From Nesterenkonia sp. Act20 (GTDB taxonomy: Bacteria > Actinomycetota > Actinomycetes > Actinomycetales > Micrococcaceae), in assembly GCF_019173455.1 (NCBI RefSeq), contig NZ_JADPQH010000001.1, positions 1,268,391-1,332,390 of the forward strand: a stretch of 64,000 nucleotides of DNA. The letters are read 5' to 3'. Position 1 is the first letter of the stretch; each line of letters opens with the position of its first letter. The position numbers and the translations under genes are program-made. Positions 36,055 to 56,231 of the stretch are shown one piece after another. The notes under the pieces were generated by a model. The model saw nothing but the letters and a program-made list of their open reading frames with translations, searched no databases and was not told the DNA's origin.

Positions 36055-36128
36055 GCGTCACCCACTCCCCCACCACCCCCGCACGCTGACCGACCCGACG
36101 TCGTCACCACCGCAAGAAAGGCGAGGCC

Positions 36129-37252: not shown

Positions 37253-37263
37253 GAGGAGCAGTC

Positions 37264-38927: not shown

Positions 38928-38953
38928 GCGCCACCACCGACACAGGAGCTGCC

Positions 38954-39724
38954 ATGATCAACCTCACCATCGTCGACGGCGTCGCCGAGATCGTCCTCGA
39001 CGCCCCCAAGAAGCTGAACTCGCTGGATGAGCAGGCCATCGACGACCTCGACGCGGCCTACCAGGAGGCCGAACAGGCAGAGGTCCGCTCCCTGCTGCTG
39101 CGCGGCGAGGGCAAAGGCTTCTGCGCCGGGCGGGACATCTCCGAAGTCGTGCCGGCCACCGACGACGCGCTCGGCTTCCTGCAGGGGAAGGTCACCCCGC
39201 TGATGCGCCGGATGGCCGCCTTCCCGGCACCGACCTTCGCCGCGGTCCAGGGCGCGTGCCTGGGCGTCGGGCTGGGACTGGCCATCGCTACAGACGTGGT
39301 CTATGTCGCCGAGAACGCGAAGATCGGCTCTCCCTTCGCAGCACTGGGCGCCACGCTGGATTCCGGGGGTCACGCCCTGTTCGTGGAGCGTCTCGGTGCC
39401 CACCGCACCCTGGATCTGATCTACACCGGGGACCTGATGTCCGGAGCTGAGGCGGTCGCGGCCGGGCTCTTCTCCCGTGCCGTGGATCCGGAAGAGCTCC
39501 TCGAGTTCACCCGAGGGAAGGCCGCCGTCGCCGCCCAGGGGGCCACGCTGGCCTTCCGCGAGTCGAAGGCACTCGTGGCGACGCTGCGGGACCAGCGCAT
39601 CGGACTCTGGGAGTCGCTGAAGGATGAGAACCACGCCCAGGGTCGGCTGTGCGACTCCGCGGATTATTCGGAGGGTTTCGCCGCCTTCCAGTCCAAGCGG
39701 AAGCCCATCTTCCACGGTCACTGA
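38954..39724 (+). CDS. paaG: Enoyl-CoA hydratase/isomerase (PaaG/PaaF-like)
   Basis: 256 aa crotonase fold (GFCAGRDI oxyanion-hole motif). Confidence 0.7.
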   Translation: MINLTIVDGVAEIVLDAPKKLNSLDEQAIDDLDAAYQEAEQAEVRSLLLRGEGKGFCAGRDISEVVPATDDALGFLQGKVTPLMRRMAAFPAPTFAAVQGACLGVGLGLAIATDVVYVAENAKIGSPFAALGATLDSGGHALFVERLGAHRTLDLIYTGDLMSGAEAVAAGLFSRAVDPEELLEFTRGKAAVAAQGATLAFRESKALVATLRDQRIGLWESLKDENHAQGRLCDSADYSEGFAAFQSKRKPIFHGH

Positions 39725-40040: not shown

Positions 40041-41003
40041 TTAGCCGCCGATGATCTGTCGGCGAAATTCGCCCGGCGAGACACCGTACTCATGCTTGAA
40101 TGCACGGCTGAAGCTCGACGCGTCCGGGTAGCCCCAGCGGGCCGCCACCGCGCTCACTGATCGACGCGACTGTGCCGGGTCACCGAGTTCTATGCGACAG
40201 CGCTCCAGCCGACGACGACGGATCCACTCGCTGATCGTCGTTCCCTCCTGCGCAAAGACGCCCTGCAGATAGCGCAGTGAGACATGCAGGGCCCGCGCCA
40301 CAGCTTCGACCCCGAGGCCGGGGTCGCTCAGGTGGTCGTCGATATGTCTGACCGCCTCCAGGTAGACCACGTCCCTGGTGGGAACATCTGAGGTGGGCCT
40401 GAAGCGCGAGAGCAGCGTCGCCTGGACCAGCTGCAACACTGCCGAAGCCGCACGCGGATCCGGGGCCATCTCCCCCTTCTGCAGCTGATCGTCAAGGCTC
40501 CCCAGCAGCGAAGATGTCAGGGCTCCCAACCCCGCACTTCCTGGGATCCGCTGAGCCACCACCTCTCGCGCCTGTTCGGCGGAGAGACCGAGATGCTCCA
40601 CTGCGATCTGCACGACGAACATTCGGTAGGCGCCATCGAAGACGAGGTCATAGGGTCGGCGAGTGTCATAGATGACGAGGTCTCCTGGTGAGAGCAGGGC
40701 CTCGCGTCCATCCTGTCGCGTGAGTGAACTCCCCTCGACCTGCAGAGCGAACTTGAAGACTCCTGGGTCCCCTGCGGCGATCGTCTGCCGACTTCGACGC
40801 ACTGTCACGGCATCCCCGCCCACCCCGGCCACGCTCAATGAGCCGAGAGCCAGCCCGGTGAGAGAGCCGTGGAACTGAGCAGGGTGCTCCGTCCTGGCAT
40901 CGAGCGGGACGAAAGCGGTGTTCACGGCGTGGCGCCACGCTTCGAAGCGCTCACCAGGCGCCAGCGGGTCGGGGTCGAAGGACACCTGCCCCGTCGTCAT
41001 CAT
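40041..41003 (-). CDS. AraC/XylS-family transcriptional regulator (FeaR-like)
   Basis: C-terminal double HTH (AVAARWGYPDASSFSRAFKHEYGVSPGEFRR); start taken at MMTTGQ (the track ORF extends to 41093, so the exact start is uncertain). Confidence 0.7.
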   Translation of the reverse strand: MMTTGQVSFDPDPLAPGERFEAWRHAVNTAFVPLDARTEHPAQFHGSLTGLALGSLSVAGVGGDAVTVRRSRQTIAAGDPGVFKFALQVEGSSLTRQDGREALLSPGDLVIYDTRRPYDLVFDGAYRMFVVQIAVEHLGLSAEQAREVVAQRIPGSAGLGALTSSLLGSLDDQLQKGEMAPDPRAASAVLQLVQATLLSRFRPTSDVPTRDVVYLEAVRHIDDHLSDPGLGVEAVARALHVSLRYLQGVFAQEGTTISEWIRRRRLERCRIELGDPAQSRRSVSAVAARWGYPDASSFSRAFKHEYGVSPGEFRRQIIGG

Positions 41004-41186
41004 GCTTGCCCACCGGCCTCTTTCCTGCTGATCTGCATGCTCCCAGTCTTCCACCTTATTGTGACCCGAGACACAATCATGCGCATGGTGCACAGGTCCG
41101 TGCGTCTGAGATCAAGGCGGGTGCCTGATCTGCGGAGATGCTGGTCTCCTCACCGCAGGACGGCGATTCAAGGAGACGAGAAGACG

Positions 41187-42710
41187 ATGGATGCACCCCG
41201 GACAAGCGAATACATCGTGATCGGCGCAGGGTCAGCTGGCTCGGCGATCACTCGGCGCCTGCTCGATGCCGGACACAGCGTGCACGTGATCGAGGCTGGC
41301 GGCCAGGATGAGGACCCCAACATCCACAGCCCCCAAGGCTGGCCCCTGCTCATGCAGGGACCGTCGGACTGGGCACTGACCACTGTGCCTCAGGTGCATG
41401 CGGACAATCGCAGCATCGCCTGGCCGCGCGGCAAGGTGTTGGGAGGGTCAGGCTCGCTCAACGGCATGATCTATATCCGTGGTCACCGTTCGGACTACGA
41501 CAAGTGGGCCGCTGCAGGATGCGAGGGCTGGGCGTGGGAGGACCTGCTGCCACTGTTCAGGCGTTCGGAAGACCACGAAGACGGAGCCTCCGAGTTCCAC
41601 GGCGCCGGCGGACCGCTGCACGTGGAGAAGATCGTGCACCGCCACGCGAGCTCCGAAGCGTTCGTCGAGGCGGCAGGAAGCGTCGGAATCCCCGAGACCC
41701 AGGACTTCAACGGCGAGCAGATGTCCGGAGCCGGGTTCAACCATACGACCACTAAGGACGGGAAGCGGCACAGCCCCTGGCGCGCGTTCATCCAACCGAT
41801 CCTGGGGCACGAGCGGCTCACCGTCACCACTGACGCCATGGTGCACCGGATCACCCACGAATCCGGGCAAGCCACCGGGGTGGAGTACAGCACCGCGTCT
41901 GGGGCTCACATCGCCCGCGCTGAGGCGGAGATCATCCTCTGCGGCGGAGCAATCGGCTCCCCCTCGATCCTGCAACGCTCCGGCATCGGTGATCCGTCTG
42001 ATCTTCGCCAGGCGGGCATCGATTCGGCGCTGGAGCTTTCCGGCGTCGGCAAGAACCTGCAGGATCATGTGCTTGCAAGCGTCATCTACGAGGCCCCCGA
42101 GCCGCTTGCCGAGGGACGGCACAATCTGCTGGAGGCGCAGCTCTTCGCGCACAGTCGACAGACCGACGAGGAGGCACCCGACATCCAGCCGCTCTTCATG
42201 CATTTCCCGTATCCCACCGACGGCGGAGAGGTGCCCGCAGCTGGCTTCACCATCAACGCCGGGATCGTCCGTCCGCGCTCCCGCGGGACGCTGCGGGTGA
42301 CCAGCTCCGATCCAAAGGCCTCTCCGCTGCTGGATCCGAATCTGCTGGCCGAGGAGTATGACCTGGAGGCTCTCTGTGACGCGATCGAGCTCTGCCGCGA
42401 AATCGGCGAACAGGATGCTCTAGCCCCCTATCGCAGAGCCGACTTCAACCCTGCCGGACCGTTGAAGACCCGCGACCAGGTCCGCGACCACGCCCGGGCC
42501 ATGGCGGGGACGTACCACCACCAGGCCGGCACATGCCGGATGGGCGTGGACGACCTCTCGGTGGTTGACCCCCAGCTGCGTGTGCGCGGAGTGACCGGCC
42601 TGCGCGTGGCCGACGCCTCGATCATGCCCGCACTGCCCAGCGGCAACACCAATGCCCCGTCGATCATGATCGGCGAGAAGGCCGCCGACCTGCTGCTGCA
42701 GAGTCGCTGA
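41187..42710 (+). CDS. GMC-family FAD oxidoreductase (choline/alcohol dehydrogenase-like)
   Basis: Start at MDAPRTSEYIVIGAGSAGS (ADP-binding bab motif) with AGGAGACG upstream; the track ORF start at 40869 is an over-extension. Confidence 0.8.
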   Translation: MDAPRTSEYIVIGAGSAGSAITRRLLDAGHSVHVIEAGGQDEDPNIHSPQGWPLLMQGPSDWALTTVPQVHADNRSIAWPRGKVLGGSGSLNGMIYIRGHRSDYDKWAAAGCEGWAWEDLLPLFRRSEDHEDGASEFHGAGGPLHVEKIVHRHASSEAFVEAAGSVGIPETQDFNGEQMSGAGFNHTTTKDGKRHSPWRAFIQPILGHERLTVTTDAMVHRITHESGQATGVEYSTASGAHIARAEAEIILCGGAIGSPSILQRSGIGDPSDLRQAGIDSALELSGVGKNLQDHVLASVIYEAPEPLAEGRHNLLEAQLFAHSRQTDEEAPDIQPLFMHFPYPTDGGEVPAAGFTINAGIVRPRSRGTLRVTSSDPKASPLLDPNLLAEEYDLEALCDAIELCREIGEQDALAPYRRADFNPAGPLKTRDQVRDHARAMAGTYHHQAGTCRMGVDDLSVVDPQLRVRGVTGLRVADASIMPALPSGNTNAPSIMIGEKAADLLLQSR

Positions 42711-42753
42711 ACATCTTCCTCGATCACCACCGCTGACCCTTTAGGAGAACACC

Positions 42754-44151
42754 ATGACCACCACCCTGCTCGAGCAGATCCAGTCCACTGACGGCCCAGA
42801 GATCCTCGACCCCGCCACCGGTGAGTTCATCGCCCGGGCGCCGCAGACCTCCCCCGCAGACCTCGACGACGCCGTCGCCCGTGCCGTGCGCGCCCAGGTC
42901 TCCTGGGCTGCCACGCCAGACGCCGAGCGGCAGGCCGCACTGCAGTCCGCCGCCGACGCGGTCGAGGCTCACGCCGAGGAACTCGCCCAGCTGCTCTCCC
43001 GTGAACAGGGAAAGCCGCTCAACGGCCCCAATGCGCGCTTCGAGGTCGGCGCCTGCGTGGCCTGGCTGCGCACCGCCGCATCGATCCCGGTGGAGCCTGA
43101 GGTCCTCCTCGACGACGAGTCCGGGCACGCCGAGCTGCACTACCGTCCGCTTGGCGTCGTCGGCGCGATCGGACCCTGGAACTGGCCGATGATGATCTCC
43201 GTGTGGCAGATCGCCCCCTCGCTGCGCATGGGCAACACGGTGGTCATCAAACCCTCCGAATACACCCCGCTCAGCGTGCTGGCCCTGGTCAAGGTCCTGA
43301 ACTCGGCCCTGCCGGAGGATGTGCTCATCGCGGTTCCAGGTGACGGCTCACTGGGCAAGCAGCTCACCGAGCACGCCGATATCGCGAAGATCATGTTCAC
43401 CGGTTCGGTGGCCACGGGCAAGGCCATCATCAAGACTGCCGCCGACACGATGAAGCGGATGACCATGGAGCTCGGCGGCAACGACGCCGGGATCGTGCTG
43501 GACGACGCCGATCCGGCGGCCATCGCGGAGGACCTGTTCTGGGGCGCGTTCATCAACACCGGTCAGACCTGCGCGGCACTGAAGCGACTCTACGTGCCGG
43601 ACTCGATCTACGACGAGGTCTGCCAGGCACTGACGGCGGTCGCGGCGAAGATGCCGATGGGCGTCGGCCTCGAGGAGCAGAATGTGCTGGGACCGCTGCA
43701 GAACGCCAAGCAGCGTGACATCGTGGCCCGTCTCGTGGACGCCGCGAAGGACTCCGGTGCGCGCGTGCTGATCGGCGCCAACCCCGACGACGACGCCGCA
43801 GGCTTCTTCTATCCCGCCACCCTCGTGGCAGACATCGACCAGCAGAACCCGCTGGTCACCGAGGAGCAGTTCGGCCCGGCCCTGCCGATCATCCGTTACA
43901 GCGACCTGGACCAGGCCATCGAATGGGCCAACGGTCTCGAGGTCGGTCTCGGCTCCTCGGTCTGGTCCTCAGACGTCACGCGTGCCACCGAAGTCGCCTC
44001 CCGGCTTCAGGCCGGCACCACGTGGATCAACAAGCACGGCGCGATCGATCCACGAGTGCCCTTCGGCGGAGCCAAGCAGTCCGGCTTCGGACTGGAGTTC
44101 GGGCTGCAGGGACTCAAAGAGGTCGCTCAGCCGCACGTGATCCAGCGCTGA
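42754..44151 (+). CDS. NAD(P)-dependent aldehyde dehydrogenase
   Basis: 465 aa ALDH fold (ELGGNDAGIV, catalytic Cys region GQTCAALKRLYV). Confidence 0.85.
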   Translation: MTTTLLEQIQSTDGPEILDPATGEFIARAPQTSPADLDDAVARAVRAQVSWAATPDAERQAALQSAADAVEAHAEELAQLLSREQGKPLNGPNARFEVGACVAWLRTAASIPVEPEVLLDDESGHAELHYRPLGVVGAIGPWNWPMMISVWQIAPSLRMGNTVVIKPSEYTPLSVLALVKVLNSALPEDVLIAVPGDGSLGKQLTEHADIAKIMFTGSVATGKAIIKTAADTMKRMTMELGGNDAGIVLDDADPAAIAEDLFWGAFINTGQTCAALKRLYVPDSIYDEVCQALTAVAAKMPMGVGLEEQNVLGPLQNAKQRDIVARLVDAAKDSGARVLIGANPDDDAAGFFYPATLVADIDQQNPLVTEEQFGPALPIIRYSDLDQAIEWANGLEVGLGSSVWSSDVTRATEVASRLQAGTTWINKHGAIDPRVPFGGAKQSGFGLEFGLQGLKEVAQPHVIQR

Positions 44152-44172: not shown

Positions 44173-44247
44173 GCAAAAAAATCGTAGACCTCTAGCATGT
44201 CGTAGAGCTATAGCTCTACGACATGGCCGGAGGTCTACGATTTTTTG
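44173..44247. repeat. Palindromic A-tract/T-tract repeat element, copy C (near-perfect); bidirectional terminator-like
   Basis: gcaaaaaaatcgtagacctctagcatgtcgtagagctatagctctacgacatggccggaggtctacgattttttgc; outer 18-bp and inner 12-bp inverted repeats; between convergent ALDH and GH13 genes. Confidence 0.85.
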
Positions 44248-44264: not shown

Positions 44265-45920
44265 CTACGCTATCCACACAGTCGCGTCAGGGTTCAAAAG
44301 ACCATCGGTCAACGCATCAGGGACCGACATCAAGATCACTTCACCCGCTGGCAGCGCAGCAGGCGCAGTGGAGAGGTTTGCCACCACTGTCACCTCACCC
44401 ACGCGGAACTCGAGAACGTCCTCGAGGGAATCGCTTTCCCCCCTCCCCGTCCCCCACGTCAGGTCAGATCCAGCGAGGGCGTAGTCACGCCGCATAGCAA
44501 GCGTTGTTCGGTAGAAGGAGAGAGTCGAATCCGACTCCTTCTCCTGAAGATCAACGGCGAGTGCCCCGAAGCTCTCGGGCTGCGGCAGCCAAGTGCGCGG
44601 CGATGAAGAAAACCCGAAAGCCACGTCATCGGCGCGCCAAGGAAGGGGCACACGACAACCATCGCGACCCCGGATGGCATGGCCAGATCGCTCCCACACC
44701 GGATCCTGACGGACCTCATCGGGAAGCATCGTGGCCTCCGGGAGGCCGAGTTCTTCCCCTTGGTAGAGGTAAGCGGAACCCGGCAGGGCTAGCATTATGG
44801 CGGTCGCGGCGCGTGCACGGCGCAGGCCGAGGGCATCGTCAGGTTGAGGATCCTCTGGACCCACACCTGCTTCGAGGTTCACCGGGCCCTGGTATCCGAA
44901 GCGGCTCGCATGTCGCATCACATCGTGGTTGGAGAGCACCCAGGTAGTCGGGGCGCCCACCGCTTCATTCGCAGCAAGGGATGTGGCGATGGTCTCACGG
45001 ATCTCAGCGCAGTCCCATGGCAGAGACAGGTAGGCGAAGTTGAAGGCCTGGTGCATCTCCCCCTCACGGACTATGCGCGCAGTCCGCTCCGGGGGGAGCC
45101 ATGCCTCTGCACATAGGATTCTGGTGCCGGAATAGCTGTCGAGAATCTCTCGCCAATGGCGGAAGATGTCGTGGATGCCCTCCTGGTCCCACATCGGTGG
45201 CATGAGGCCATCTATGGGCTCGACCACACCGTGAGCCGCGTGCGGCCAGCTGGGGAGGCCCGGAGCCTTCACCATGGCGTCGCATACATCGACTCTGAAC
45301 CCGTCGACGTCGCGGTCCAGCCAGAATCTCAGCGTCGTGTCGAACTCGGACCGCACCCGGGGGTTGTCCCAGTTCCAATCGGGCTGACCAGAGTCGAAGA
45401 GATGCAGATACCACTGACCCGGGGTCCCATCGGCTTCGGTGACCCGTGTCCACGCGGGGCCGCCGAACATGCTCTCCCAATCATTCGGTGGAAGCGACCC
45501 CTCGGGCCCCGTCCCCTCTTTGAAATGGAAGAGGGACCGCTCAGGGCTCCCCGGCGCCGCGGCGAGTGCCTCTTTGAACAGCACGTGCTCCCAGGAGCAG
45601 TGGTTGGGCACAAGGTCAACGATTACTCTCAGTCCCAGCTCATGAGCCCGGTCGACCATCTCATCGAAGTCAGCGAGGGTTCCGTACCTTTCGTCGACGT
45701 CGCGGTAGTCGGCCACGTCGTAGCCCCCGTCACGTTGCGGGGACGGATAGAAGGGGGACAACCACACGGCGTCCGCCCCCAGATCCGCGACATGGCTGAG
45801 TCGCTGGGAGATTCCTCTCAGATCGCCGGTTCCGTCGCCGTCGCTGTCGGCGAACGAGCGGGGGTAGACCTGGTAGATGACGGCCGTGCGCCACCATTCG
45901 GAGTCGTTGATGTCGATCAT
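44265..45920 (-). CDS. GH13 alpha-glucosidase / oligo-1,6-glucosidase-like
   Basis: 551 aa; GH13 regions (DLVPNHCS, GFRVDVCD, catalytic EAW..). Confidence 0.8.
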   Translation of the reverse strand: MIDINDSEWWRTAVIYQVYPRSFADSDGDGTGDLRGISQRLSHVADLGADAVWLSPFYPSPQRDGGYDVADYRDVDERYGTLADFDEMVDRAHELGLRVIVDLVPNHCSWEHVLFKEALAAAPGSPERSLFHFKEGTGPEGSLPPNDWESMFGGPAWTRVTEADGTPGQWYLHLFDSGQPDWNWDNPRVRSEFDTTLRFWLDRDVDGFRVDVCDAMVKAPGLPSWPHAAHGVVEPIDGLMPPMWDQEGIHDIFRHWREILDSYSGTRILCAEAWLPPERTARIVREGEMHQAFNFAYLSLPWDCAEIRETIATSLAANEAVGAPTTWVLSNHDVMRHASRFGYQGPVNLEAGVGPEDPQPDDALGLRRARAATAIMLALPGSAYLYQGEELGLPEATMLPDEVRQDPVWERSGHAIRGRDGCRVPLPWRADDVAFGFSSSPRTWLPQPESFGALAVDLQEKESDSTLSFYRTTLAMRRDYALAGSDLTWGTGRGESDSLEDVLEFRVGEVTVVANLSTAPAALPAGEVILMSVPDALTDGLLNPDATVWIA

Positions 45921-46777
45921 GCAGTGAGGGTTCCCTTTCGGTACAAGTCAGGTCGTCGGTCGGCAAGCAGACCGTTGTGCGGGGAGATTGATTTGTCCTC
46001 GGCGAGATGAAGCGAGAGTGACGCACGGGCGACCGGGCGGGCCCCCGAAGCGTCTGGAACATCGGCCACAACCCAACCGTATTGACTCACGATCACGGTG
46101 GCTTCGTTCCACGATTGACCCCGCTCAATCCCGGCTCGATCACAGCAGGCGATAAAGACGCCGTTGGTCCGCGCCGCCGCTTGAGCTGCGATCACCTCGG
46201 CAGCACGCTCGGCCACGGGATGCTCTCCCGAGGGCCAATTCGTGGGGACAGCGATGAGATCAGCCCCTGCGAGAGCGAGGAGCCGCGGCATCTCGGGAAA
46301 CTCCATGTCGTAGCAGATCAACAGGCCTATCCTGCCGTGCACCGTGTCAACCACGGGAGGCAGATCATTCCCCGGCTCGAATACCTGGGTCTCGCGATCC
46401 CAGAGATGCGTCTTTCGATAGACCGCGCTCACACCGTCGGCGTCGATCAACGCCGCACTGTTGTAGAGCACCTCACCCCCGTCCTCGCAGAACCCCACGA
46501 CGACAACCAGCGAAGTACCTCCAAGCGCCGCGGAAGTCTCGGCGAAGAAGGGGTGATCCGTGGTCATTGCGACGCTGCGAGCCTCCGCCCGGCTCCTGAA
46601 CACATAGCCCGACGTGGACAGTTCGGGCAGCACGAGAACATCCGTTCCGTCGGAACAGGCTTCCGCGACTGCCTCGCCGATCAGGGTGAGATTTCCTTCG
46701 AGGTCACCCACCATGGGTGTGAGCTGGTGACACGCGACATTCGTCAGCTTCCGCTCAAGAGCAGCACCCGGACTCAT
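45917..46777 (-). CDS. Carbon-nitrogen hydrolase family (nitrilase/amidase superfamily)
   Basis: 286 aa; E-K-C triad context (LPELSTSGY, RKTHLW, LLICYDMEFPE); ATGA overlap with glucosidase start. Confidence 0.75.
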   Translation of the reverse strand: MSPGAALERKLTNVACHQLTPMVGDLEGNLTLIGEAVAEACSDGTDVLVLPELSTSGYVFRSRAEARSVAMTTDHPFFAETSAALGGTSLVVVVGFCEDGGEVLYNSAALIDADGVSAVYRKTHLWDRETQVFEPGNDLPPVVDTVHGRIGLLICYDMEFPEMPRLLALAGADLIAVPTNWPSGEHPVAERAAEVIAAQAAARTNGVFIACCDRAGIERGQSWNEATVIVSQYGWVVADVPDASGARPVARASLSLHLAEDKSISPHNGLLADRRPDLYRKGTLTA

Positions 46778-47580
46778 TTGACGGCCCCTTCGGTGATCCC
46801 AGAGATGAGGCGACGCTGCAGCACCACATAGGCGCTGACGATCGGCAGCGCCACGAGGACTGCCGCGGCAGCTGTGATGTTCGGGTCGGAAGCACGAGCG
46901 GCGCCAGAGAAGAAGGACAAAGCTAGCGGCGCCGTCTGGACGGCTTCGTTCTGGGGAACAAGGATCAAGGCGAGGAGGAATTCATTCCAGGTGAAGAGGA
47001 ACAAGATGGTCACCAAAGTAGCGATTGCCGGTCCCGCGATGGGCATCAGCACACTCCTGAAGATGATGAACCTCGACGCCCCGTCCATCCGCGCCGCTTC
47101 CAAGAGTTCCTTGGGCACGGACGCGAAGAACGCACGCATCCAGAACACTCCTAACGGTACGGAGAGGCCGATCTGGGGCAATATGAGAGCGAGATATGTG
47201 TCGATGAGATTCCAGTCTGCCAACATCTGATAGAGCGGCAAGACGGTGACCTCATACGGAAGCACCAACCCCAGCAGCATCGCGCCCAGCATGATCTTGA
47301 CCCCGGGGACCCTCATGTGGGCCATGGCATAGCCAGCCAAACAGGCCACGGCGACGGTCACAGCGACGACGGCGGTGGTCACCAAGGCGCTTGAGGCCAG
47401 TGCCGATCCGAAGCCGCCTCTCGTCCACGCCTCGGCGTAGTTCGCGAACGTGAGAGACCCAGAGGAGTCCGATCCACGGAGCGAGGAAATCACAATTGAG
47501 AGGAACGGGAAGACGGCGATGGCCGTTGCGATGAGGAGGAGAGTATGGGTGATGACAACTTCGCTGCGTGCAACCTTCAT
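46774..47580 (-). CDS. ABC transporter permease (carbohydrate, MalG-like)
   Basis: 268 aa, 6 TM, EAA loop (EAARMDGASRFIIFRSVLMP). Confidence 0.8.
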   Translation of the reverse strand: MKVARSEVVITHTLLLIATAIAVFPFLSIVISSLRGSDSSGSLTFANYAEAWTRGGFGSALASSALVTTAVVAVTVAVACLAGYAMAHMRVPGVKIMLGAMLLGLVLPYEVTVLPLYQMLADWNLIDTYLALILPQIGLSVPLGVFWMRAFFASVPKELLEAARMDGASRFIIFRSVLMPIAGPAIATLVTILFLFTWNEFLLALILVPQNEAVQTAPLALSFFSGAARASDPNITAAAAVLVALPIVSAYVVLQRRLISGITEGAVK

Positions 47581-48566
47581 GAGTTTCTCTCCTCCTTGCC
47601 GGGGGCCTGCGCCGGCTCCGGCGTCGAGCGTGGAGCTCGGTCGGGCGACTCTCGCAGCGCAAGCTGAACGATGCCGACGATCACCAAGGTGAGCACGGTA
47701 AGCACAACCGCCAGCGCCGAAGCCTCCCCGAGCAATCTGTTCTGGAACGCGTCCTGGTAGATGTAGACGCTGGGGACGGCCGTAGAGGTGCCGGGGCCGC
47801 CCTGAGTGGTGTTCCAGATCAGATCGAAGTTCCTCAGCGCGAACGTGATGGTGAGAATCAGTGCGATAGATATCTGCGGGCGCAGGGATGGCAGAGTGAT
47901 GCTGACGAACTCTCGGATGGGACCCGCGCCGTCAAGCCGCGCAGCCTCGTACAGCGAACGGTCGATCGAGGCGATGCCGGAGAGGAAGAGCAGCATGCAC
48001 AACCCGTACTCCACCCAGGTTCCTATCCCGCCGATGGCTGGCAGCGCAGTGCCGAAATCTCCGAGCCAGGCACGCGTGATCGACCCAAGACCGACAGCGC
48101 GCAGAGTCTCGTTGAGCGGTCCATCGATCGCGAGAATATCTCGCCACGAGACAGCAACGACCACGCTCGAAAGGATCTGCGGGAGGAACAACAGCGCCCT
48201 GAACCAGGTCAACCCGTAGATCCTGATCCGAGACATGAGCCCCGCAAGAAAGAGACCAATGACCACAGGAAGGGCCGCATAGAAGAACAGCAGCACCAAG
48301 GAGTGGCTGAGCGCCTCTCTCATGGCCGGATTGGTGAAGACCTCCACGTAGTTCGAGAAGCCAACCGGAGTTGCCGCGGTGATGCCGTCCCAGCGGTAGA
48401 AGGAGATTCGCACCGACTGCACGATCGGGACGATCACAAACACGATGAAGAACGCCAGCGCGGGCGCGACATAGAACAACGAGGACCAGGAGTATCTGGA
48501 TGAACCCTGCCTGCGTCGCTTCGAAGAAGCCTCGGGTCTTTTCGCTTCGGCCCTCGACACGGTCAT
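47577..48566 (-). CDS. ABC transporter permease (carbohydrate, MalF-like)
   Basis: 329 aa, EAA loop (EAARLDGAGPIREFVSITLP). Confidence 0.8.
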   Translation of the reverse strand: MTVSRAEAKRPEASSKRRRQGSSRYSWSSLFYVAPALAFFIVFVIVPIVQSVRISFYRWDGITAATPVGFSNYVEVFTNPAMREALSHSLVLLFFYAALPVVIGLFLAGLMSRIRIYGLTWFRALLFLPQILSSVVVAVSWRDILAIDGPLNETLRAVGLGSITRAWLGDFGTALPAIGGIGTWVEYGLCMLLFLSGIASIDRSLYEAARLDGAGPIREFVSITLPSLRPQISIALILTITFALRNFDLIWNTTQGGPGTSTAVPSVYIYQDAFQNRLLGEASALAVVLTVLTLVIVGIVQLALRESPDRAPRSTPEPAQAPGKEERNS

Positions 48567-49918
48567 CCGTGCGCCTCGGCCCAGACCTCTTGGACCTGCT
48601 CGGTGAATTCCTCCGGGCTCACCCGTCCGGCCATCACTTCCTGCAACGTTCCACCCATCTGATTCAGCATGTCGGTGGTCGCCCAGTCGTAATATCCGAC
48701 CTGGGTTCCCGCTTCGATCGTCTCCTCGAGAGCCGTCAGCGTCTGTTCCTCCAACGGGTCGTCAGCTGTGACTCCGTCGGTCACAACAGGCAGTCGACCG
48801 GTGTCGAGAATCTGCTGGCCCACCTCCGGAGAGTGCAAGGTCTCCAGAAAAGCGATCGCGGGGAGTTCCGCGTCGGTGCTGCTGCTGATGTGCCATGGCG
48901 ATGCCGTGGCACCGACGCCACCCGAGGTGAGTGACCCGAAACCGAACTCTTCGGAGTTCAGCGGGGCACCGTTCCATGATCCACCGACGAAGTAGACCCC
49001 CTCACCGTCGGCGAACCGAGCAATGGCGTCTTGGTTGCTGATGCCGTCATAGCCGGGTCCGAAGTATCCCGCATCCGCCCAAGCTGCCATCGTCTGAGCC
49101 GCCTCAGCATTTCCTTCCGTCTCGAACGTTGCGTCTGGATCGCCGCCGATCCACGCTGCAATATCCGCTGGATCCTGAGTGGTCGCAGCGATGTCGGAGA
49201 AGATATGCGTTGCGGCGTACTGGTCGGAATTGCCGAGCATGATCGCCTGCTCTCCAGCCTCGTCTGCCGCTGCGGCGCCAGCTTCCAGATCCTCGACGGA
49301 ATCCGGAGCCGTGAGGTTCAGTTCCTCGAGCTTTTCCTTGTTGTAGTAGATGCCCTGCACTTCGCTGATGGGTGACATGCCGTAGAGGGTTCCACTGCCG
49401 AAAGCTGATCCCTCGTCGTTCCATCGTGCCGGATCGAGGGTGCTTGCTCCGGTGCCTTCTTCCCAGCCGTAGACGTCGGCCACATCGTCAAGTGGGCGGA
49501 CGAGGTCTCCCTTCACAAGTGCTCCGTCGACTGCGTGTCCGATGTTGCCCTGGAACAGGTCAGGCGGGGAGCTGCTCGCTGCAGCATTCACTACGGTGGC
49601 GATGAGATCATCGAAGCTCTTGTACGTCACGTCAACGGTCACGTTCGGGTATTCGTCCTCGAATGCTGGGACGACCTCTTCCATCAGCCCTTCTTCGGCC
49701 TGGTCGGCCCAGACTGACAGCGTGACATCCCCAAGATCCGCGATCTGTTCAGGCGTCACTTCCTCGGTGATGGACTGGCGATCTTCATCTGATGATTCTG
49801 CGGCAGCACCGCTGCCAGGGGCCCCACATCCGGAGAGTGCGAGCAGCGCTACCACCGACGTGGTGAGCGGCATAGACATGAATCGTGCACGGTGACCTGC
49901 TCGAACGCTGTGTCTCAT
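48563..49918 (-). CDS. ABC transporter solute-binding lipoprotein (family 1, sugar)
   Basis: 451 aa; lipobox LSGC; SBP_bac_1 fold. Confidence 0.75.
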   Translation of the reverse strand: MRHSVRAGHRARFMSMPLTTSVVALLALSGCGAPGSGAAAESSDEDRQSITEEVTPEQIADLGDVTLSVWADQAEEGLMEEVVPAFEDEYPNVTVDVTYKSFDDLIATVVNAAASSSPPDLFQGNIGHAVDGALVKGDLVRPLDDVADVYGWEEGTGASTLDPARWNDEGSAFGSGTLYGMSPISEVQGIYYNKEKLEELNLTAPDSVEDLEAGAAAADEAGEQAIMLGNSDQYAATHIFSDIAATTQDPADIAAWIGGDPDATFETEGNAEAAQTMAAWADAGYFGPGYDGISNQDAIARFADGEGVYFVGGSWNGAPLNSEEFGFGSLTSGGVGATASPWHISSSTDAELPAIAFLETLHSPEVGQQILDTGRLPVVTDGVTADDPLEEQTLTALEETIEAGTQVGYYDWATTDMLNQMGGTLQEVMAGRVSPEEFTEQVQEVWAEAHG

Positions 49919-51261
49919 GACTGTTCTCCTGTGGTGTTTCCGACGGTTTCAAATGAGGCGAGACGCATGGTCGCGGTTGCCTCGTGCGCAGACATGCCCT
50001 CGCTGTTGGAGATCACTGCGACGGCCTCGGCCAAGGCTGGCGTCGCCTCCCTAGTGATGCGCTGGTAGGTGAGCGGCTTGAGGAACCTCGAAACGGAGAG
50101 TCCAGCGCTGTGCTTCGCGCCACCAGCAGTAGGGAGCGTGTGGTTCGTGCCCGCCATGCCCTTGTCAGAATAGGCAACGGTACTCCAATGGCCCATGAAG
50201 AGTGAGCCATAGTTGGTGAGGTGGTCGTGGTACCATGCGTCATCTGCGGTCTGGACCTCCAAATGTTCCGGCGCCAGCTCGTCCATGACTAGAACTGCGT
50301 CTTCCGGCGACTCGACGACGACTACCGAACCGAAATCTCTCCAGGCAGGTCCGCAGATGTCACGCGTGGATAGCTCCAGGATCTGACGTTCGACCGCCGC
50401 GATGACCTGCTGCCCCAACGACCTGGATGTCGTCACGAGTGCCGCAGGAGAGTTGGGGCCATGCTCTGCCTGTCCAAGCAGGTCAGCGGCGACTATCTCT
50501 GCGTCGGCGGTCTCATCAGCAATCACCGCGACCTCGGAGGGCCCAGCCAAGAGATCGATGGCGACCGCGCCGAAGAGCTGCCTCTTGGCTTCAGCGACGT
50601 AGGCATTGCCCGCACCGACGATCATGTCAACCGGCGCCTCTCCCAGGAGTCCGAATGCCATCCCCGCGAGGGCCTGCACGCCACCCAGCAGGTAGAGATG
50701 ATCCACCCCGGAGAGGTGTGCGGCATAGCTCACCGCATCGTTGGCCCGTCCGTCCGGCTGCGGCGGAGTGCAACCCAGGACGGAAGGCACTTGGGCGGCC
50801 TTGGCGACTCCAATGCTCATCAGCGCACTCGCAGTGAGCGGAAAGCGTCCGGCAGGAAGGTAGGCCCCGACGCTATTGATCGGAATGTAGCGCTGTCCCA
50901 CAGTAAGTCCTGGGACCATCTCCGCTTCGAAGTCGAAGAGGTGTTCGCGCTGAAGGGCCGCGAACTGTCGGGTTCGTTCGGAGCCAAGCTCGATCGCGGC
51001 CCGCAGCTCCGGGTTCAGTCGATCGCCGCTCGAGGCAATCGAGGCGGCATCCAGTTCGAACGTCGATAGCTCAGAGCCATCGAGATCCTTCGCGTATTTG
51101 CGAATCGCCTGCATGCCGTGACGTTCGATATCGAGCAGCATCTCGCTGACTCTGGCGGCGACCGCAGGGTCGCGTTGGGCGGGGGGCGCGTCGACTTTCG
51201 GCGCTTTGAGCTCATCAAAGCGCTCACCATGTACGGACCTGAACTGTGGGCTAATTCTCAT
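49915..51261 (-). CDS. Histidinol-dehydrogenase-family NAD-dependent dehydrogenase (HisD paralog, non-histidine context)
   Basis: HisD fold with Zn-ligand regions (GQAEHGPNS, HLEV..); probable start MRISPQF (track ORF starts at 51297); first gene of the sugar ABC operon. Confidence 0.65.
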   Translation of the reverse strand: MRISPQFRSVHGERFDELKAPKVDAPPAQRDPAVAARVSEMLLDIERHGMQAIRKYAKDLDGSELSTFELDAASIASSGDRLNPELRAAIELGSERTRQFAALQREHLFDFEAEMVPGLTVGQRYIPINSVGAYLPAGRFPLTASALMSIGVAKAAQVPSVLGCTPPQPDGRANDAVSYAAHLSGVDHLYLLGGVQALAGMAFGLLGEAPVDMIVGAGNAYVAEAKRQLFGAVAIDLLAGPSEVAVIADETADAEIVAADLLGQAEHGPNSPAALVTTSRSLGQQVIAAVERQILELSTRDICGPAWRDFGSVVVVESPEDAVLVMDELAPEHLEVQTADDAWYHDHLTNYGSLFMGHWSTVAYSDKGMAGTNHTLPTAGGAKHSAGLSVSRFLKPLTYQRITREATPALAEAVAVISNSEGMSAHEATATMRLASFETVGNTTGEQS

Positions 51262-51333
51262 GAACCCGACTATTCCGGGTTGGAAGATGAAGGACAACTG
51301 CAGGTTTTCAACGGATTCCTATAGCCTGAAGCT

Positions 51334-52233
51334 ATGTCTTTGAACCAGATGCGGGCTTTTCTCATGGTCGTCTCCATGGGGAGCTTCTCCGGGGCAGCAA
51401 CAGAGATGCAGATGGCGCAGCCTTCGGTGTCTGGAATGATCAAGAGAATCGAACAGGCCTACGGCGTGCGGCTTTTCACCAGGGGGCCGCGACGCCTCGT
51501 CTTGACCAACGCAGGCCAGGAGCTTCTCCCGTATGCGAAAGCGGCCGTGGAAGCGGCGGACAACGCCGACGTCGCGCTTCGATCCCTCACGTCTCTCGCT
51601 GGCGGGGTCGCCACCTTCGGACTGCTGCGCAACGCAAACTACTACTTCCTCTCACGCCTGCTCGAAACATTCACGACGCGGTTTCCGGATGTGCGCCTGA
51701 GGGTCTTCGGCCTCAACTCAGCCGAAGTTGCAGAAGCAGTAGCGGCTGGCGATCTGGAAGCAGGCCTCGTCGTGCTGCCGATCGACTCAGAGGGCTTGCA
51801 GGTGACGCCTCTGATGAGAGACGAAGTCTTTTACGCCTCGGCAGACCCCTCGCGCACGGCAAGCCCCGTCACGATCCGAGACCTCTCGCAGGCCGATCTG
51901 ATCCTCTACGACGCGCATTACGGCTGGCGAGATCCTACACGGCGGCAACTCGCAGAGCGCGCCAACCTCGAAGGGGTGACTCTCACGGCTCGAATCGAAG
52001 TGGAACACGTTGAATCTGCGCTGGACATGGTGCAGCACGGACACGGCGACACGATCATCTCAGGGGCAGTCAGAGCAGGGAAAGCCTTCCCCCCATCGAT
52101 CCATACCGCCCCATTTGCTGAACCGATGTATGACACGATCGCCCTTGTTCAGAGACCCGGAGCGGTACTCTCACCCGCCACGCGTGAACTCACCAGACTC
52201 GCTCAACGGATGCTGCTCCAACCGAATTTCTAA
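51334..52233 (+). CDS. LysR-family transcriptional regulator
   Basis: 299 aa; N-terminal LysR HTH (MRAFLMVVSMGSFSGAATEMQMAQPSVS); divergent from the ABC operon. Confidence 0.8.
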   Translation: MSLNQMRAFLMVVSMGSFSGAATEMQMAQPSVSGMIKRIEQAYGVRLFTRGPRRLVLTNAGQELLPYAKAAVEAADNADVALRSLTSLAGGVATFGLLRNANYYFLSRLLETFTTRFPDVRLRVFGLNSAEVAEAVAAGDLEAGLVVLPIDSEGLQVTPLMRDEVFYASADPSRTASPVTIRDLSQADLILYDAHYGWRDPTRRQLAERANLEGVTLTARIEVEHVESALDMVQHGHGDTIISGAVRAGKAFPPSIHTAPFAEPMYDTIALVQRPGAVLSPATRELTRLAQRMLLQPNF

Positions 52234-52422: not shown

Positions 52423-54033
52423 TTACGGGGTGACGTCTTCGCCGACCCAGGCGTCCTCGTAGAACTGCGAAGACCTGGACTTCAACAGCTCGGTGTACGC
52501 CTCGTCGGGGAGCGACTGCGCTGAATCCTCGGGCACCTCGGTGGTGAACGCTGACACGCCCAGACCGGCCTCGTGGTCCTCCACGTTCAGCCCGGCGATC
52601 TCCAAGAGGGTGGGGAACATGTTCAGCTGGTCCATGTCCGAACGCAGCGGGGCCTCCTCCCCGCCCGGAACCCAGATGCGATTGAAGAGAGCGCGGGTCT
52701 CGTCATCGCCCAGCTCTTCGTGGAAGGCATCGCCGGCGTCCACAGGCTTGAGGTGGTCACCCATGATCACCACGGCTGTGTCCTCGAGGTAGCCCTGCTC
52801 CTCCATATGCTTCACGAGTCCGGCCACCTGATCCATCGAGCATGCATACACCGAGGTGGCTTCCTTCTCTGTGTCCACTGTGCAGTAGTCATGGACGTGC
52901 ACAGGCTCGTGCGTGTCGAGGGTGAGCACTGAGAGGTTGAAGGGCTCGCCCGTCACCTCGGACTCGGCATGCAGGGCATCGAGCTCGTCCTTGGCGTATT
53001 CCATGAGCCGCTGGTCACTCAGGCCCCAGTCGCTGCGGAAGCTGCTGTCGGGCTCTCCCCGGTCGCGCCAGTCACCTCGGCCCAGCACCTTCGAGTAGCC
53101 ATGATCGCCGAGCATGGTGTCCTTCGCCGCAAAGGAGGGGTTGGCACCTCCGAGGAAGACGTTGGTGTAGCCGTTGTCCTTGAGGATGTCACCGAAGCAG
53201 GTCAGCCCACCGAGATAGGTCTCGGTCCCCACGCCGCTCTCGGCATAGGATCCGCTGCTCGCTGCGGAGAGGATGCCGTCGAGCGGAACTCCGCACTGCG
53301 TCGAGACCAGTCCGGCCATGGTCCAGCCGCTGCCGTCGTACTCACGCAGATCATCGATGCTCTGCCACCCATCTTCAGCGCGGGTGACCTCCTTCAGCGA
53401 AGCATAGGCATCCTTCTCGAAGACCTCGTCATCCCCGAGCGCCGCCTCGCCAGATTCGAGATACACCATGACCATATTGCGCTCGTCACCCTCGCTGGTG
53501 ACGTTCGGCTTCACGTAGTGGTCGCCGATCTCATAACTGGAGTCGGCGGCGTCGATGTAGTCCGTGACCTGGACCGTGCTGACGAATGCAGCGGGCCCGC
53601 CGATGATGAGCGTGAGAACCACGACGGCGTACATTCCGCGTCCGAACCATGTGGGGCGAGTGTGGTCCGACGCAGACTGATGGGTCCGGGTCTTGGAGCT
53701 GCGGTGACGCAGTCGACGCATGATGGACGGCCAGAACATGATGGCGATGGTCAGCAGCAGCGGCACGACGCCGATGCCCAGGATGCAGACCCAGACGATG
53801 ACGCCGCCTCCGCCGCCGATCTCCATCGACATGAGGTTCATGAGCACCTGGACCACGGTGACCTTGCCCCAGTGATAGTGGATGATGGCCGCCGCGATGA
53901 GCAGCGCCATTCCCAGCCAGGTCAGCGTGAACAGCAGCACGCCAGCAAGGACCCTGCCGATCCGCCCGGTCGTGGATCGAGCCCGCCGGGAACCGGCAGC
54001 ATCCCGCGATCCAGATGCATGCATGTCCGTCAT
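52423..54033 (-). CDS. Membrane-anchored sulfatase-family protein (LtaS/phosphoglycerol-transferase-like, alkaline-phosphatase superfamily)
   Basis: 536 aa; N-terminal multi-TM segment then extracytoplasmic sulfatase domain. Confidence 0.65.
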   Translation of the reverse strand: MTDMHASGSRDAAGSRRARSTTGRIGRVLAGVLLFTLTWLGMALLIAAAIIHYHWGKVTVVQVLMNLMSMEIGGGGGVIVWVCILGIGVVPLLLTIAIMFWPSIMRRLRHRSSKTRTHQSASDHTRPTWFGRGMYAVVVLTLIIGGPAAFVSTVQVTDYIDAADSSYEIGDHYVKPNVTSEGDERNMVMVYLESGEAALGDDEVFEKDAYASLKEVTRAEDGWQSIDDLREYDGSGWTMAGLVSTQCGVPLDGILSAASSGSYAESGVGTETYLGGLTCFGDILKDNGYTNVFLGGANPSFAAKDTMLGDHGYSKVLGRGDWRDRGEPDSSFRSDWGLSDQRLMEYAKDELDALHAESEVTGEPFNLSVLTLDTHEPVHVHDYCTVDTEKEATSVYACSMDQVAGLVKHMEEQGYLEDTAVVIMGDHLKPVDAGDAFHEELGDDETRALFNRIWVPGGEEAPLRSDMDQLNMFPTLLEIAGLNVEDHEAGLGVSAFTTEVPEDSAQSLPDEAYTELLKSRSSQFYEDAWVGEDVTP

Positions 54034-54122: not shown

Positions 54123-56231
54123 TCACACCCACTCGGGCTTGTTCTCCTTCGCCACACGGGTCAGCACGTCATAGGTGGCCACGATCTCGTCATGCTGGTT
54201 GTGCAGCACCGTGTCCCAGCGGACCTCGCCGTAATCATCGGTCTCGCGCGGGATGATCTGCTTGGCGGTCAGGGTCACTCGGATCGAGTCGTCGTAGGTC
54301 ACCGGGGTCTGGAAGGAGAGGTTCTCCAGGCCGGTGTTCGCCAGCACCGGCCCCGGTGCCGGCTCCACGAAGAGCCCCGCAGCCCAGGCCACCAGCAGGT
54401 AGCCGTGCGCCACCCGGCGCGGGAAGAACGGGTTCGCGGTCGCGGCCTCTTCATTGGTGTGCGCGTAGAAGGTGTCTCCGGTGGACTCGGCGAAGGCGGT
54501 GATGTCCTCCAGCGCCACAGTGCGCAGGCCCGAGGCGAACTGGTCGCCGATGCGCAGCTCCGCCAGGGACTTGCGGAACGGGTGCACCGCCGTGCCCTCG
54601 GCCACCGTCTCCGGCGTCGCCGTGACGGCCTTCGCTCCGCGGTGCCAGACTCCGGTCACGCCGGTGAGGAGATCGGGCGAGCCCTGGACCGCGGTGCGCT
54701 GCATATAGTGCTTCACTGCGCGGATGCCGCCCAGCTCTTCGCCGCCCCCGGCCCGGCCGGGACCGCCGTGGACCAGATGCGGCAGCGGGGATCCGTGCCC
54801 GGTGGAGGTCTTCGCGTCGTCGCGGTCGAGGAAGAGCACCCGGCCGTGATGGGAGGCGATCCCCCGGGTGAACTCCGCGGCGATCTCCGGGTCGTGGGTG
54901 CAGACCGTTGCCACCAGGGAACCGCCGCCGAGCGCGGCGAGGTCAACGGCGTCGTCGATGTCGGCATAGCCGAGCACCGAGGTGACCGGCCCGAAGGCCT
55001 CGACCGAGTGCACCGCGGGGGTGCGGGGCTCGGCGAAGGAGAGCACGGTGGCCGGGAAGAATGCGCCCCGTGCAGCATCGGCCGAGCCGGTGCCTGATTC
55101 GGGTCCGCCCACCCGCACCGCGCCGCCGGCGCTGACCAGCGTGTCCACCGCCCGGGCGACCTCATCGCGCTGGTCGGTGGAGGCCAGCGGCCCCATCGTG
55201 GTGTCGGCGTCACGCGGATCACCGAGGACCACACGGGACTCGAGCCGGGCACGCAGCGCCTCCACCACAGGGTCCACCTGGGCGGAGGGCACGATGACGC
55301 GGCGGATGGCGGTGCACTTCTGTCCCGTCTTCGCGGTCATCTCCAGGGTCACCGACTTGATGAAGGCCTCGAACTCCACGGTGTCAGGCGCCGCATCGGG
55401 GCCGAGGATGGCGGCATTGAGCGAATCGGTCTCCGCGGTGAAGCGCACGCCCTGGTTCGCCACATTCTCATGGGAGCGCAGCAGCTGGGCGGTGTTCGCG
55501 GAACCGGTGAAGGCCACGTGATCTCGATGATCCAGGTGATCGAGCAGGTCGCGGGCGGATCCGGAGATCAGCTGCAGCGCACCGGCGGGGATCAGTCCGG
55601 AATCGATCATCAGCCGCACACAGGCCTGCGTGACATAGGCGGTCTGTGAGGCGGGCTTCACGATGGTCGGGACCCCGGCGATGAAGCTGGGGGCAAACTT
55701 CTCGAGCATCCCCCAGACGGGGAAGTTGAAGGCGTTGATCTGCACCGCGACACCGGTCAGCCTGGTGTAGATGTGTTCACCCAGGAAGGATCCGTCCCGG
55801 GAGAGCTGCTCCACCGCCCCGTCGACGATGACGTTCGCGTTCGGCAGCTCCTTGCGCCCCTTGGAGGAGAAGGTGCGGATCGTACCGATGCCGCCGTCGA
55901 CGTCGACCAGGTGGTCCCGACGCGTGGAGCCGGTCCGGTCGGAGAGCTCGTAGAGCTCCTCGCGGTGCTCGTGGAGGTAGGCCGCCAGGTGCTTGAGCCG
56001 CAGCGCACGCTGGTGGATCGTCAGCTGCCCCAGACTGGTCTGACCTGCCGAGCGGGCATGGGCGACGGCGGCCGCCGTGTCCACCCCCTCCGTGGAGACC
56101 TGGCAGACCGGCTCACCGGTGGACGCGTCGAGGATCTCGCTGACCCGCTCCGGGCTCTCCGGGGTCCACCAGGAGTCCTGGATGTAGCTGGGCAGCAGGC
56201 GCGGAGCCGCAGAAGTTTCAATGGCAGCCAT
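54123..56231 (-). CDS. paaZ: Bifunctional PaaZ (ALDH domain + MaoC-like hydratase: oxepin-CoA hydrolase / 3-oxo-5,6-dehydrosuberyl-CoA semialdehyde dehydrogenase)
   Basis: 702 aa; N-terminal ALDH fold, C-terminal MaoC hotdog (last ~150 aa). Confidence 0.8.

Follow-up and report, generated by a model that had tools for sequence, protein, structure and literature searches.

The 64-kb stretch of Nesterenkonia sp. Act20 DNA analysed here (contig NZ_JADPQH010000001.1, positions 1,268,391 to 1,332,390; hereafter the window) carries on its minus strand, at 44265-51261, six open reading frames that appear to form a single operon under a divergent LysR-type regulator. The gene order is HisD-family dehydrogenase, lipoprotein solute-binding protein (SBP), two CUT1 permeases of an ATP-binding cassette (ABC) importer, carbon-nitrogen (CN) hydrolase and glycoside hydrolase family 13 (GH13) α-glucosidase. 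We tentatively propose, at a little under an even chance of being right, that this is a LysR-activated catabolic operon for a small α-D-glucoside, with four-electron oxidation and amide hydrolysis of the aglycone. Judged from its sequence, the dehydrogenase belongs to a distinct HpsN-related actinobacterial clade (clade A) and would be neither a spare HisD nor a canonical HpsN. That clade A represents a third substrate class of the HisD/HpsN family, and forms with the amidase a two-step route for a small polar metabolite and its α-glucoside, is a proposition that we hold to be evenly balanced between right and wrong. Literature searches found no description of this operon or gene combination, in agreement with the original prediction, made from the DNA letters, that the combination maps to no described pathway.

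The open reading frame list gives the coordinates exactly as originally predicted, and the predicted protein families are upheld by Pfam. Window proteins are 100% identical to those of Nesterenkonia sp. Act20. All five gene junctions are ATGA overlaps on the coding strand. The first gene likely starts at the ATG at 51261 rather than at an in-frame TTG at 51297; the resulting protein of 448 residues matches the NCBI protein, and homologues align with it from residue 1. Within the operon, matches to promoter and terminator consensus sequences are not above the frequency in shuffled sequence. The hairpin directly after the GH13 gene (71 nt, near-perfect) has a predicted energy of -67.1 kcal/mol (z = -9.2), a stability equalled by 0 of 200 shuffles, and would double as the terminator for the convergent aldehyde dehydrogenase gene. 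Because of the five overlaps, the lack of internal signals above background and the strong terminator after the GH13 gene, the six genes appear to be one translationally coupled transcription unit, as had been predicted. The dehydrogenase is itself coupled into the operon by an ATGA overlap, which speaks against a HisD paralogue on a separate transcript. The operon encodes the SBP and both permeases; an ABC ATPase gene is missing from it and from the sequence immediately flanking it. An ATPase supplied in trans, for example MsiK, is usual for actinobacterial CUT1 systems. An inverted repeat, AACCCGGAATAGTCGGGTT (51263-51281), abuts the dehydrogenase ATG, where there is no obvious Shine-Dalgarno sequence; the repeat is restricted to the window and one closely related contig (L001, described below), is absent in other genera and may be a translational or attenuating hairpin.

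The PF00815 match of the dehydrogenase (9e-126) spans profile positions 6-411 of 411. Among solved structures, CpHpsN is closest (8v35; E 4e-111, 375 bits), with 49% identity over about 410 residues, whereas HisD from E. coli (1k75) is more distant (E 4e-70) and the best solved HisD scores 242 bits. The TIGR00069 hisD domain model is passed (422 bits, cut-off 244), but the full-length HisD equivalog NF010343 is failed (238 bits, cut-off 647). In the alignment with CpHpsN, the Zn-binding and catalytic residues are kept (GQAEHG, AGPSE, EH, DK, NH...H), with the Zn ligands being the Gln and His of GQAEHG, the Asp of DK and the C-terminal His from the partner subunit. A full-length PF00815 domain, the Zn ligands and the catalytic Glu-His pair place the protein in the HisD superfamily, and to this extent the predicted HisD-family dehydrogenase stands; it is, however, nearer to HpsN than to HisD and fits the motif of neither. 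The diagnostic loop of HpsN is G-R-Y-A/S-H, in which the terminal His126 binds the sulfonate, and that of HisD is G-S-A-P-L (PMC11382572). The loop in the window dehydrogenase is G-R-F-P-L, common to this protein and all 43 clade-A members (one with G-Q-F-P-L). In the published survey, HpsN is confined to proteobacterial classes and Desulfobacteria; actinobacteria receive no mention in the paper.

Scanning one genome per species yielded 80 loci with relatives of the dehydrogenase, and exact protein look-up added five (numbered here with the prefix L). The compared set consists of the 45 loci (43 non-redundant) with a dehydrogenase at least 60% identical to that of the window, and all window proteins were compared. 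Across all fetched loci, the PF00815 family splits cleanly into three clades. Clade A, made up of the window protein and all actinobacterial homologues of at least 63% identity, has PAGRFPL and a near-invariant second motif, YSDKGMAGTNH. Clade B contains the proteobacterial HpsN-type proteins (GGRY[AS]H and GDK..SGxNH), and clade C the proteins of Chloroflexota and one Bacillota genome as well as a second paralogue in some actinobacterial clusters (GGRYP[ML] and YGDK-[VI]IGTNH). For the comparison of active sites, 43 clade-A, 24 clade-B and 27 clade-C sequences were aligned with CpHpsN, and the numbering of the CpHpsN paper is used. The replacements invariant in clade A are Tyr124 to Phe, His126 to Leu, Trp258 to Ala, Gly351 to Ser, Ser355 to Ala and Arg413 to Ala, the last being two residues past the Zn ligand His411*. 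One extra residue follows Lys353; the equivalent of Lys353 itself is kept. Neither the Zn ligands nor the catalytic Glu-His pair differ, from which we infer that clade A retains the oxidation of a primary alcohol to an acid in a four-electron reaction by one enzyme. The pocket should be larger and less positive than that of HpsN or HisD, because two cationic or hydrogen-bonding side chains and one Trp are gone. The oxidation of an amino alcohol to an amino acid, as first suggested for this enzyme, would be one option among several, a vicinal diol being equally possible.

Clade C also lacks the His126 of HpsN. It is found in Chloroflexota and a Robertmurraya genome (L040-L048, L052, L056-L060, L063) and, as the second paralogue next to an SDR gene (in Microbacterium also an HpcH aldolase gene), in actinobacterial clusters (L009-L013, L016, L033, L037, L039). 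The database labels of the homologues conflict: NCBI has 'histidinol dehydrogenase', and several sources, including JGI, have 'sulfopropanediol 3-dehydrogenase'. Both labels seem doubtful for clade-A proteins. Among the annotated window genes at about 35-62 kb, there is no hpsO/hpsP, SuyAB, CuyA or Xsc, and the annotated recurrent neighbour clusters of the clade-A loci contain no hpsO/hpsP or sulfolyase.

The CN-hydrolase has the nitrilase-superfamily triad (E52, K122 and C155) and matches no NCBIfam equivalog at cut-off. Its best solved relatives are the amidase/nitrilase structures from Pyrococcus horikoshii and Pyrococcus abyssi (1j31, 3ivz, 6ypa and 7ovg; E about 1e-33, about 120 bits), of which 6ypa and 7ovg are complexes of a C146A variant. 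These relatives are short-chain aliphatic amidases, and for this reason, of the amide, nitrile and N-carbamoyl bonds initially considered for the enzyme, an amide is weakly favoured and the other two are less likely. Homologues are mostly actinobacterial and located in the same clusters as the clade-A dehydrogenase. In the GH13 protein, conserved regions I-IV are complete (DLVPNH at 102-107, GFRVD with D211, E272, and H332-D333), as in retaining α-glucosidases. The closest solved structures are those of an α-glucosidase with acarbose/acarviosin (8yie/8yif; E 4e-162), followed by Halomonas HaG (3wy1) and Xanthomonas XgtA (6aav), the last two of which we take to be members of subfamily GH13_23. 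The protein has no signal peptide, and the enzyme should therefore act on an imported compound. Solved oligosaccharide-binding proteins match the SBP no more than weakly; its paralogues at 41-52% identity serve unrelated sugar-derivative operons, and every orthologue of at least 60% identity that was seen came from a genome with the dehydrogenase (and the CN-hydrolase) as well.

The complete operon, in the same order and with the divergent LysR gene, is present at 10 of the 43 non-redundant loci and in four actinobacterial families, a recurrence beyond what chance would give. These loci are a Nesterenkonia-like contig, two Streptomyces, five Curtobacterium, Labedella and Jatrophihabitans lederbergiae, with protein identities of 60-87% to the window; in Jatrophihabitans, 4-nt overlaps join the genes at four of the five junctions. 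The neighbourhood of HisD-like dehydrogenase, CN-hydrolase and GH13 is thus conserved outside the window, as the original prediction required. The homologue lists of the dehydrogenase, CN-hydrolase and SBP repeat the same genomes (Leifsonia shinshuensis, Glaciihabitans, S. aurantiacus, S. tendae and Labedella endophytica), which suggests that the operon is more widespread than the ten inspected loci. Contig L001 (WNZI01000006.1; 121 kb), deposited as Vibrio cholerae strain 35D, contains the whole operon, its proteins being 76-87% identical to those of Nesterenkonia. The guanine-plus-cytosine (GC) content of the retrieved part is 63%, and the contig is almost certainly an actinobacterial contaminant in the Vibrio cholerae assembly.

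The LysR and dehydrogenase genes are separated by 72 bp. The LysR start codon is overlapped by the dyad ATAGCCTGAAGCTAT, which is of the T-N11-A type and has the form ATAG-N7-CTAT; this is the single match to the pattern in the 64-kb window, where 0.05 would be expected. Of the 43 related loci, 18 carry an exact ATAG-N7-CTAT at 74-75 bp before the dehydrogenase ATG, two others carry it at -76 and -113, and 6 more have it at -75/-74 with one mismatch. The box is found in every cluster architecture, including those of Saccharopolyspora, Leucobacter, Mycolicibacterium and Amycolatopsis. A second, imperfect dyad lies closer to the dehydrogenase gene (GAAAAC-N6-TTGTCC; GGACAA-N7-TTGTCC in Streptomyces), and its TTGTCC occupies the same intergenic place in 9 of the 10 displayed sequences, window included. 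LysR would be predicted to bind at ATAG-N7-CTAT, and the two dyads would correspond to the classical layout of a LysR recognition site and an activation site. The domains of the plus-strand regulator, together with a T-N11-A dyad in the intergenic region, confirm the divergent LysR-type arrangement that had been predicted. The dyad layout would link the regulator to the promoter of the dehydrogenase gene and so, for the window, to all six genes of the operon.

Counted over the 45 clade-A loci, the neighbours of the dehydrogenase are LysR (40), CN-hydrolase (29, within 5 kb), GH13 (13) and window-type CUT1 genes (10). The evolutionarily stable unit appears to be LysR with the clade-A dehydrogenase, usually joined by the CN-hydrolase. 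The GH13 and CUT1 genes look like an added front end, because this core sits elsewhere with quite different transporters: a ribose-type CUT2 ABC system in some loci (with an SBP that is likewise ribose-type and gives no clue to the substrate), an NCS1 permease in Mycobacterium, APC permeases (followed in two such loci by a Zn-dependent alcohol dehydrogenase and a succinate-semialdehyde-type aldehyde dehydrogenase), a ProP-like (MHS-type) MFS transporter in Saccharopolyspora and a polar-amino-acid-type ABC system in Leucobacter. A BCCT transporter is located near the clade-A core in Amycolatopsis. In Microbacterium, the dehydrogenase and GH13 genes overlap by 4 nt and are accompanied by an OpuA-type system, without CUT1 genes. 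No CN-hydrolase was found at the Leucobacter locus, where an Amidohydro_3 enzyme is encoded convergently, about 80 bp downstream of the dehydrogenase; its presence in place of the CN-hydrolase is consistent with a required amide-hydrolysis step. The variety of importers, which includes several for amino acids or osmolytes, suggests that the dehydrogenase acts on a small polar molecule, probably one resembling an amino acid. Since the core also occurs with other transporters and without GH13, the α-glucoside is probably a conjugate of some small polar molecule, which other actinobacteria would import in its free form.

Family membership and synteny suggest the following route. The glucoside would be imported by the lipoprotein SBP and the two CUT1 permeases, energised by an ATPase in trans, and the cytoplasmic GH13 enzyme would free glucose and a small polar aglycone. 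At its single Zn site, the clade-A enzyme would use two NAD+ to convert a primary alcohol of the aglycone, located beside a hydroxyl or amino group, to the carboxylate. The CN-hydrolase would cleave a carboxamide (a nitrile or N-carbamoyl group being less likely) and free ammonia, and the end product would be a hydroxy- or amino-(di)carboxylic acid that enters central metabolism. Dehydrogenase, amidase and LysR would be the ancestral module for the free compound, and the CUT1 and GH13 genes would open access to its glucosylated form. The suggestion of an α-glucoside with an N-acylated or amino-alcohol aglycone, from which this work started, is broadly reasonable, with the change that the glucoside part would be an add-on to a core of dehydrogenase and LysR (and amidase). 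By analogy with histidinol and 2,3-dihydroxypropane-1-sulfonate (DHPS), the Zn-binding group of the substrate may lie five atoms from the carbon bearing the alcohol oxygen. Fitting C4 candidates would be 3,4-dihydroxy- or 3-amino-4-hydroxy-butanamide, with malate or aspartate as the product. The orphan pantothenate pathway (pantothenase and oxidation of pantoate to dimethylmalate) has the right reaction types and is a more speculative candidate; the pantothenase protein was still unidentified in 2023 (PMC10393543). Ring cleavage of pyridoxine or N-heterocycles, considered for the larger clusters described below, and sulfoquinovose-type oxidation were rejected, as the six-gene operon has no ring-cleavage or sugar-oxidation enzymes.

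Several points weigh against this route. In 14 of the 43 non-redundant clade-A loci there is no CN-hydrolase within 10 kb, and the amidase is therefore not obligatory. We know of no natural α-glucoside with an aglycone that needs exactly these two steps. GH13 α-glucosidases of this kind are often promiscuous, and the enzyme and transporter could serve ordinary disaccharides. Many loci embed the module in larger clusters with unexplained chemistry, the additions being tandem SnoaL-like proteins, a bicupin, a second (clade-C) HisD paralogue, an SDR, an α/β-hydrolase, an HpcH aldolase and LacI; here, the dehydrogenase might act on an intermediate of a pathway and not on a compound taken up from outside.

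The larger clusters are actinobacterial and from Dormibacterota (L009-L013, L016, L018-L021, L028, L031, L033, L037, L049, L077, L083 and L084) and look like an uncharacterised multi-step catabolic pathway. The SnoaL-like proteins have 330-410 residues and the bicupin 388; the α/β-hydrolase is fused to the HpcH aldolase in L084, and the ABC system is sugar-type. None of the proteins added in these clusters has a close relative that is characterised or gave a clue to the substrate: the bicupin has no solved relative at E<0.01 and no NCBIfam match, and the tandem SnoaL-like protein has weak matches only, to SnoaL-like polyketide-pathway proteins (SnoL, AclR and similar). Elsewhere in the window there are no homologues of the SnoaL-like, bicupin, SDR, hydrolase or LacI proteins.

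The proposed glucoside route was weighed against other explanations of the same genes. The SBP, permeases and GH13 could be an ordinary α-glucoside system (maltose, sucrose-isomer or trehalose type), with the dehydrogenase and CN-hydrolase acting on an unrelated compound and merely co-transcribed. Most loci do contain the dehydrogenase/CN-hydrolase/LysR module without GH13 or CUT1 genes, the GH13 protein resembles broad-specificity α-glucosidases, and the SBP paralogues in other sugar-derivative operons fit such a composite. We nevertheless regard it as unlikely, since the two gene sets are interleaved and translationally coupled, with the dehydrogenase first and the CN-hydrolase between permease and GH13, in an order kept in four families. 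The restriction of close SBP orthologues to dehydrogenase-carrying genomes, the direct joining of dehydrogenase and GH13 genes in Microbacterium and the single candidate LysR operator for the whole unit also argue against it. The operon could also degrade glucosyl-C3 compatible solutes, with the dehydrogenase turning glucosylglycerol into glucosylglycerate, the CN-hydrolase converting the glyceramide form to the acid and the GH13 enzyme freeing glucose and glycerate. Nesterenkonia is halotolerant, actinobacteria make glucosylglycerate and mannosylglyceramide occurs in Rhodothermus, all of which would suit this explanation. The clade-A replacements W258A, H126L and R413A would enlarge the pocket, and HpsN-type enzymes take 1-substituted 2,3-dihydroxypropyl groups (PMC11382572). 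The same clade with identical motifs stands, however, beside APC, NCS1, MFS and amino-acid-type ABC transporters without a glycosidase, which argues for a small non-glycosylated substrate and makes a glucosylated one improbable. Glucosylglyceramide, to our knowledge, has not been reported as a natural product, which also counts against this explanation.

Two further explanations take the database labels at their word. If the enzyme were a true sulfopropanediol-3-dehydrogenase, as in the JGI/KEGG-style label used by several sources, the operon would serve a sulfonated glycoside or DHPS. The closeness of CpHpsN (49% identity) and the retained Lys353 equivalent agree with this, but G-R-F-P-L replaces G-R-Y-A/S-H in the 43 clade members, Arg413 and Trp258 are Ala, the sulfonate genes named above are missing beside the operon and in the annotated recurrent clusters of related loci, and the published survey confines HpsN to proteobacterial classes and Desulfobacteria; we consider a sulfonate substrate very improbable. 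A redundant histidinol dehydrogenase for histidine biosynthesis or salvage is hardly credible at all: the TIGR00069 score, the NCBI name and a motif that ends in P-L like the HisD loop favour it, but HpsN is markedly nearer than any solved HisD, the NF010343 cut-off is missed by a wide gap, and the gene has no his-operon context and is coupled to a sugar-type importer.

Table 1. Coordinates of the operon genes, the regulator and the candidate signals in the window
Feature	Position	Strand	Evidence or remark
HisD/HpsN-family NAD+/Zn dehydrogenase, clade A, 448 aa	49915..51261	-	PF00815 Histidinol_dh 9e-126
CUT1-type extracellular solute-binding lipoprotein, 451 aa	48563..49918	-	SBP_bac_8/SBP_bac_1; lipobox LLALSGC
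ABC permease 1 (MalF/UgpA/GlcT-like)	47577..48566	-	BPD_transp_1; NCBIfam GlcT, UgpA, MalF below cut-off
ABC permease 2 (MalG/UgpE/GlcU-like)	46774..47580	-	BPD_transp_1; NCBIfam GlcU, UgpE, MalG below cut-off
Nitrilase-superfamily C-N hydrolase, amidase-like, 286 aa	45917..46777	-	PF00795 3e-40
Cytoplasmic GH13 exo-α-glucosidase, 551 aa	44265..45920	-	Alpha-amylase domain 6e-94 and DUF3459
Bidirectional intrinsic terminator (predicted)	44176..44246		71-nt near-perfect hairpin flanked by A7/U7, directly after GH13
LysR-type regulator, divergent from operon	51334..52233	+	HTH_1 8.5e-20 and LysR_substrate 6.6e-31
Candidate LysR recognition box, ATAG-N7-CTAT	51321..51335		Dyad of T-N11-A type; overlaps LysR start codon
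Second imperfect dyad, GAAAAC-N6-TTGTCC	51292..51309		Candidate activation site or -35 region

The operon, the LysR gene, a membrane protein gene and a module of AraC, GMC oxidoreductase and aldehyde dehydrogenase lie between paaABCDE and paaZ. The phenylacetate genes are split, with paaA-E and an enoyl-CoA hydratase gene at 35017-39721, paaZ at 54123-56231 and about 14 kb of unrelated genes between. The GC content of the operon is 61.7% compared with 66-68% in the flanks; this lower value and the location between paa genes are consistent with acquisition of the operon by insertion into the paa cluster. An association with phenylacetate catabolism was rejected: the cluster of Amycolatopsis marina (L083) abuts paaZ-paaABCDE, no other locus does, and this is taken as coincidence or a shared insertion site. 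At 40041-44151, an AraC gene diverges from that of a 613-residue GMC oxidoreductase, which is followed by a betaine-aldehyde/aminobutyraldehyde-type aldehyde dehydrogenase. The two enzymes form a separate alcohol-to-acid module and were ruled out as part of the system, being convergent, beyond the terminator and not conserved beside clade-A loci. The membrane protein (52423-54033; 536 residues), convergent with LysR, has a sulfatase fold, is related to phosphoglycerol transferase/lipoteichoic acid synthase and has no counterpart at any related locus.

PF00815 enzymes have just two established activities, the oxidation of histidinol and that of DHPS/cysteinolate. If the proposal is right, the known chemistry of these unusual one-site, four-electron dehydrogenases would be broadened by a third clade, which is common across actinobacteria, has sharply distinguishing motifs and possesses a regulator, an operator and an amidase partner of its own. 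Its recognition would also correct a systematic mis-annotation, since the 'sulfopropanediol 3-dehydrogenase' label would inflate the sulfonate cycling attributed to soil actinobacteria. The α-glucoside itself would be a natural product not yet described, which soil and plant-associated actinobacteria produce or encounter. The operon offers an experimental handle in the SBP, the LysR sensor and three soluble enzymes, with which the glucoside and its aglycone could be fished out of plant, soil and microbial extracts.

Compared with known systems, the window dehydrogenase has PF00815, the Zn ligands, the catalytic Glu-His pair and Lys353 in common with HpsN (CpHpsN, 8v35; PMC11382572). It differs in the clade-A residues Leu126, Phe124, Ala258, Ala413 and Ser351 and the insertion after Lys353, has no hpsOP or sulfolyase neighbours and is partnered instead with a CN-hydrolase and LysR. 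With HisD (E. coli 1k75) it shares the fold family, the predicted Zn/NAD+ chemistry and a loop ending in Pro-Leu; unlike HisD, it has Arg-Phe in place of Ser-Ala in the motif, and its context is catabolic rather than a his operon. In the one HisD compared at this position, 6an0, Tyr is found where the window dehydrogenase has Lys after the Zn-binding Asp. The CN-hydrolase has the Glu-Lys-Cys triad of the Pyrococcus amidases/nitrilases (1j31, 6ypa, 7ovg, 3ivz), but the similarity is moderate (about 120 bits) and the protein falls in a group of actinobacterial enzymes found alongside the clade-A dehydrogenase. The aglEFGAK operon of Sinorhizobium meliloti, for α-glucoside uptake and hydrolysis, encodes a CUT1 SBP, two permeases and a cytoplasmic GH13 exo-α-glucosidase and has a LacI-type regulator. 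The window operon likewise combines a CUT1 SBP and two permeases with a cytoplasmic GH13 enzyme in one operon; in contrast to aglEFGAK, it has no ATPase gene and is paired with a LysR-type rather than a LacI-type regulator, and the dehydrogenase and CN-hydrolase genes are interleaved and coupled with those of the importer and glucosidase.

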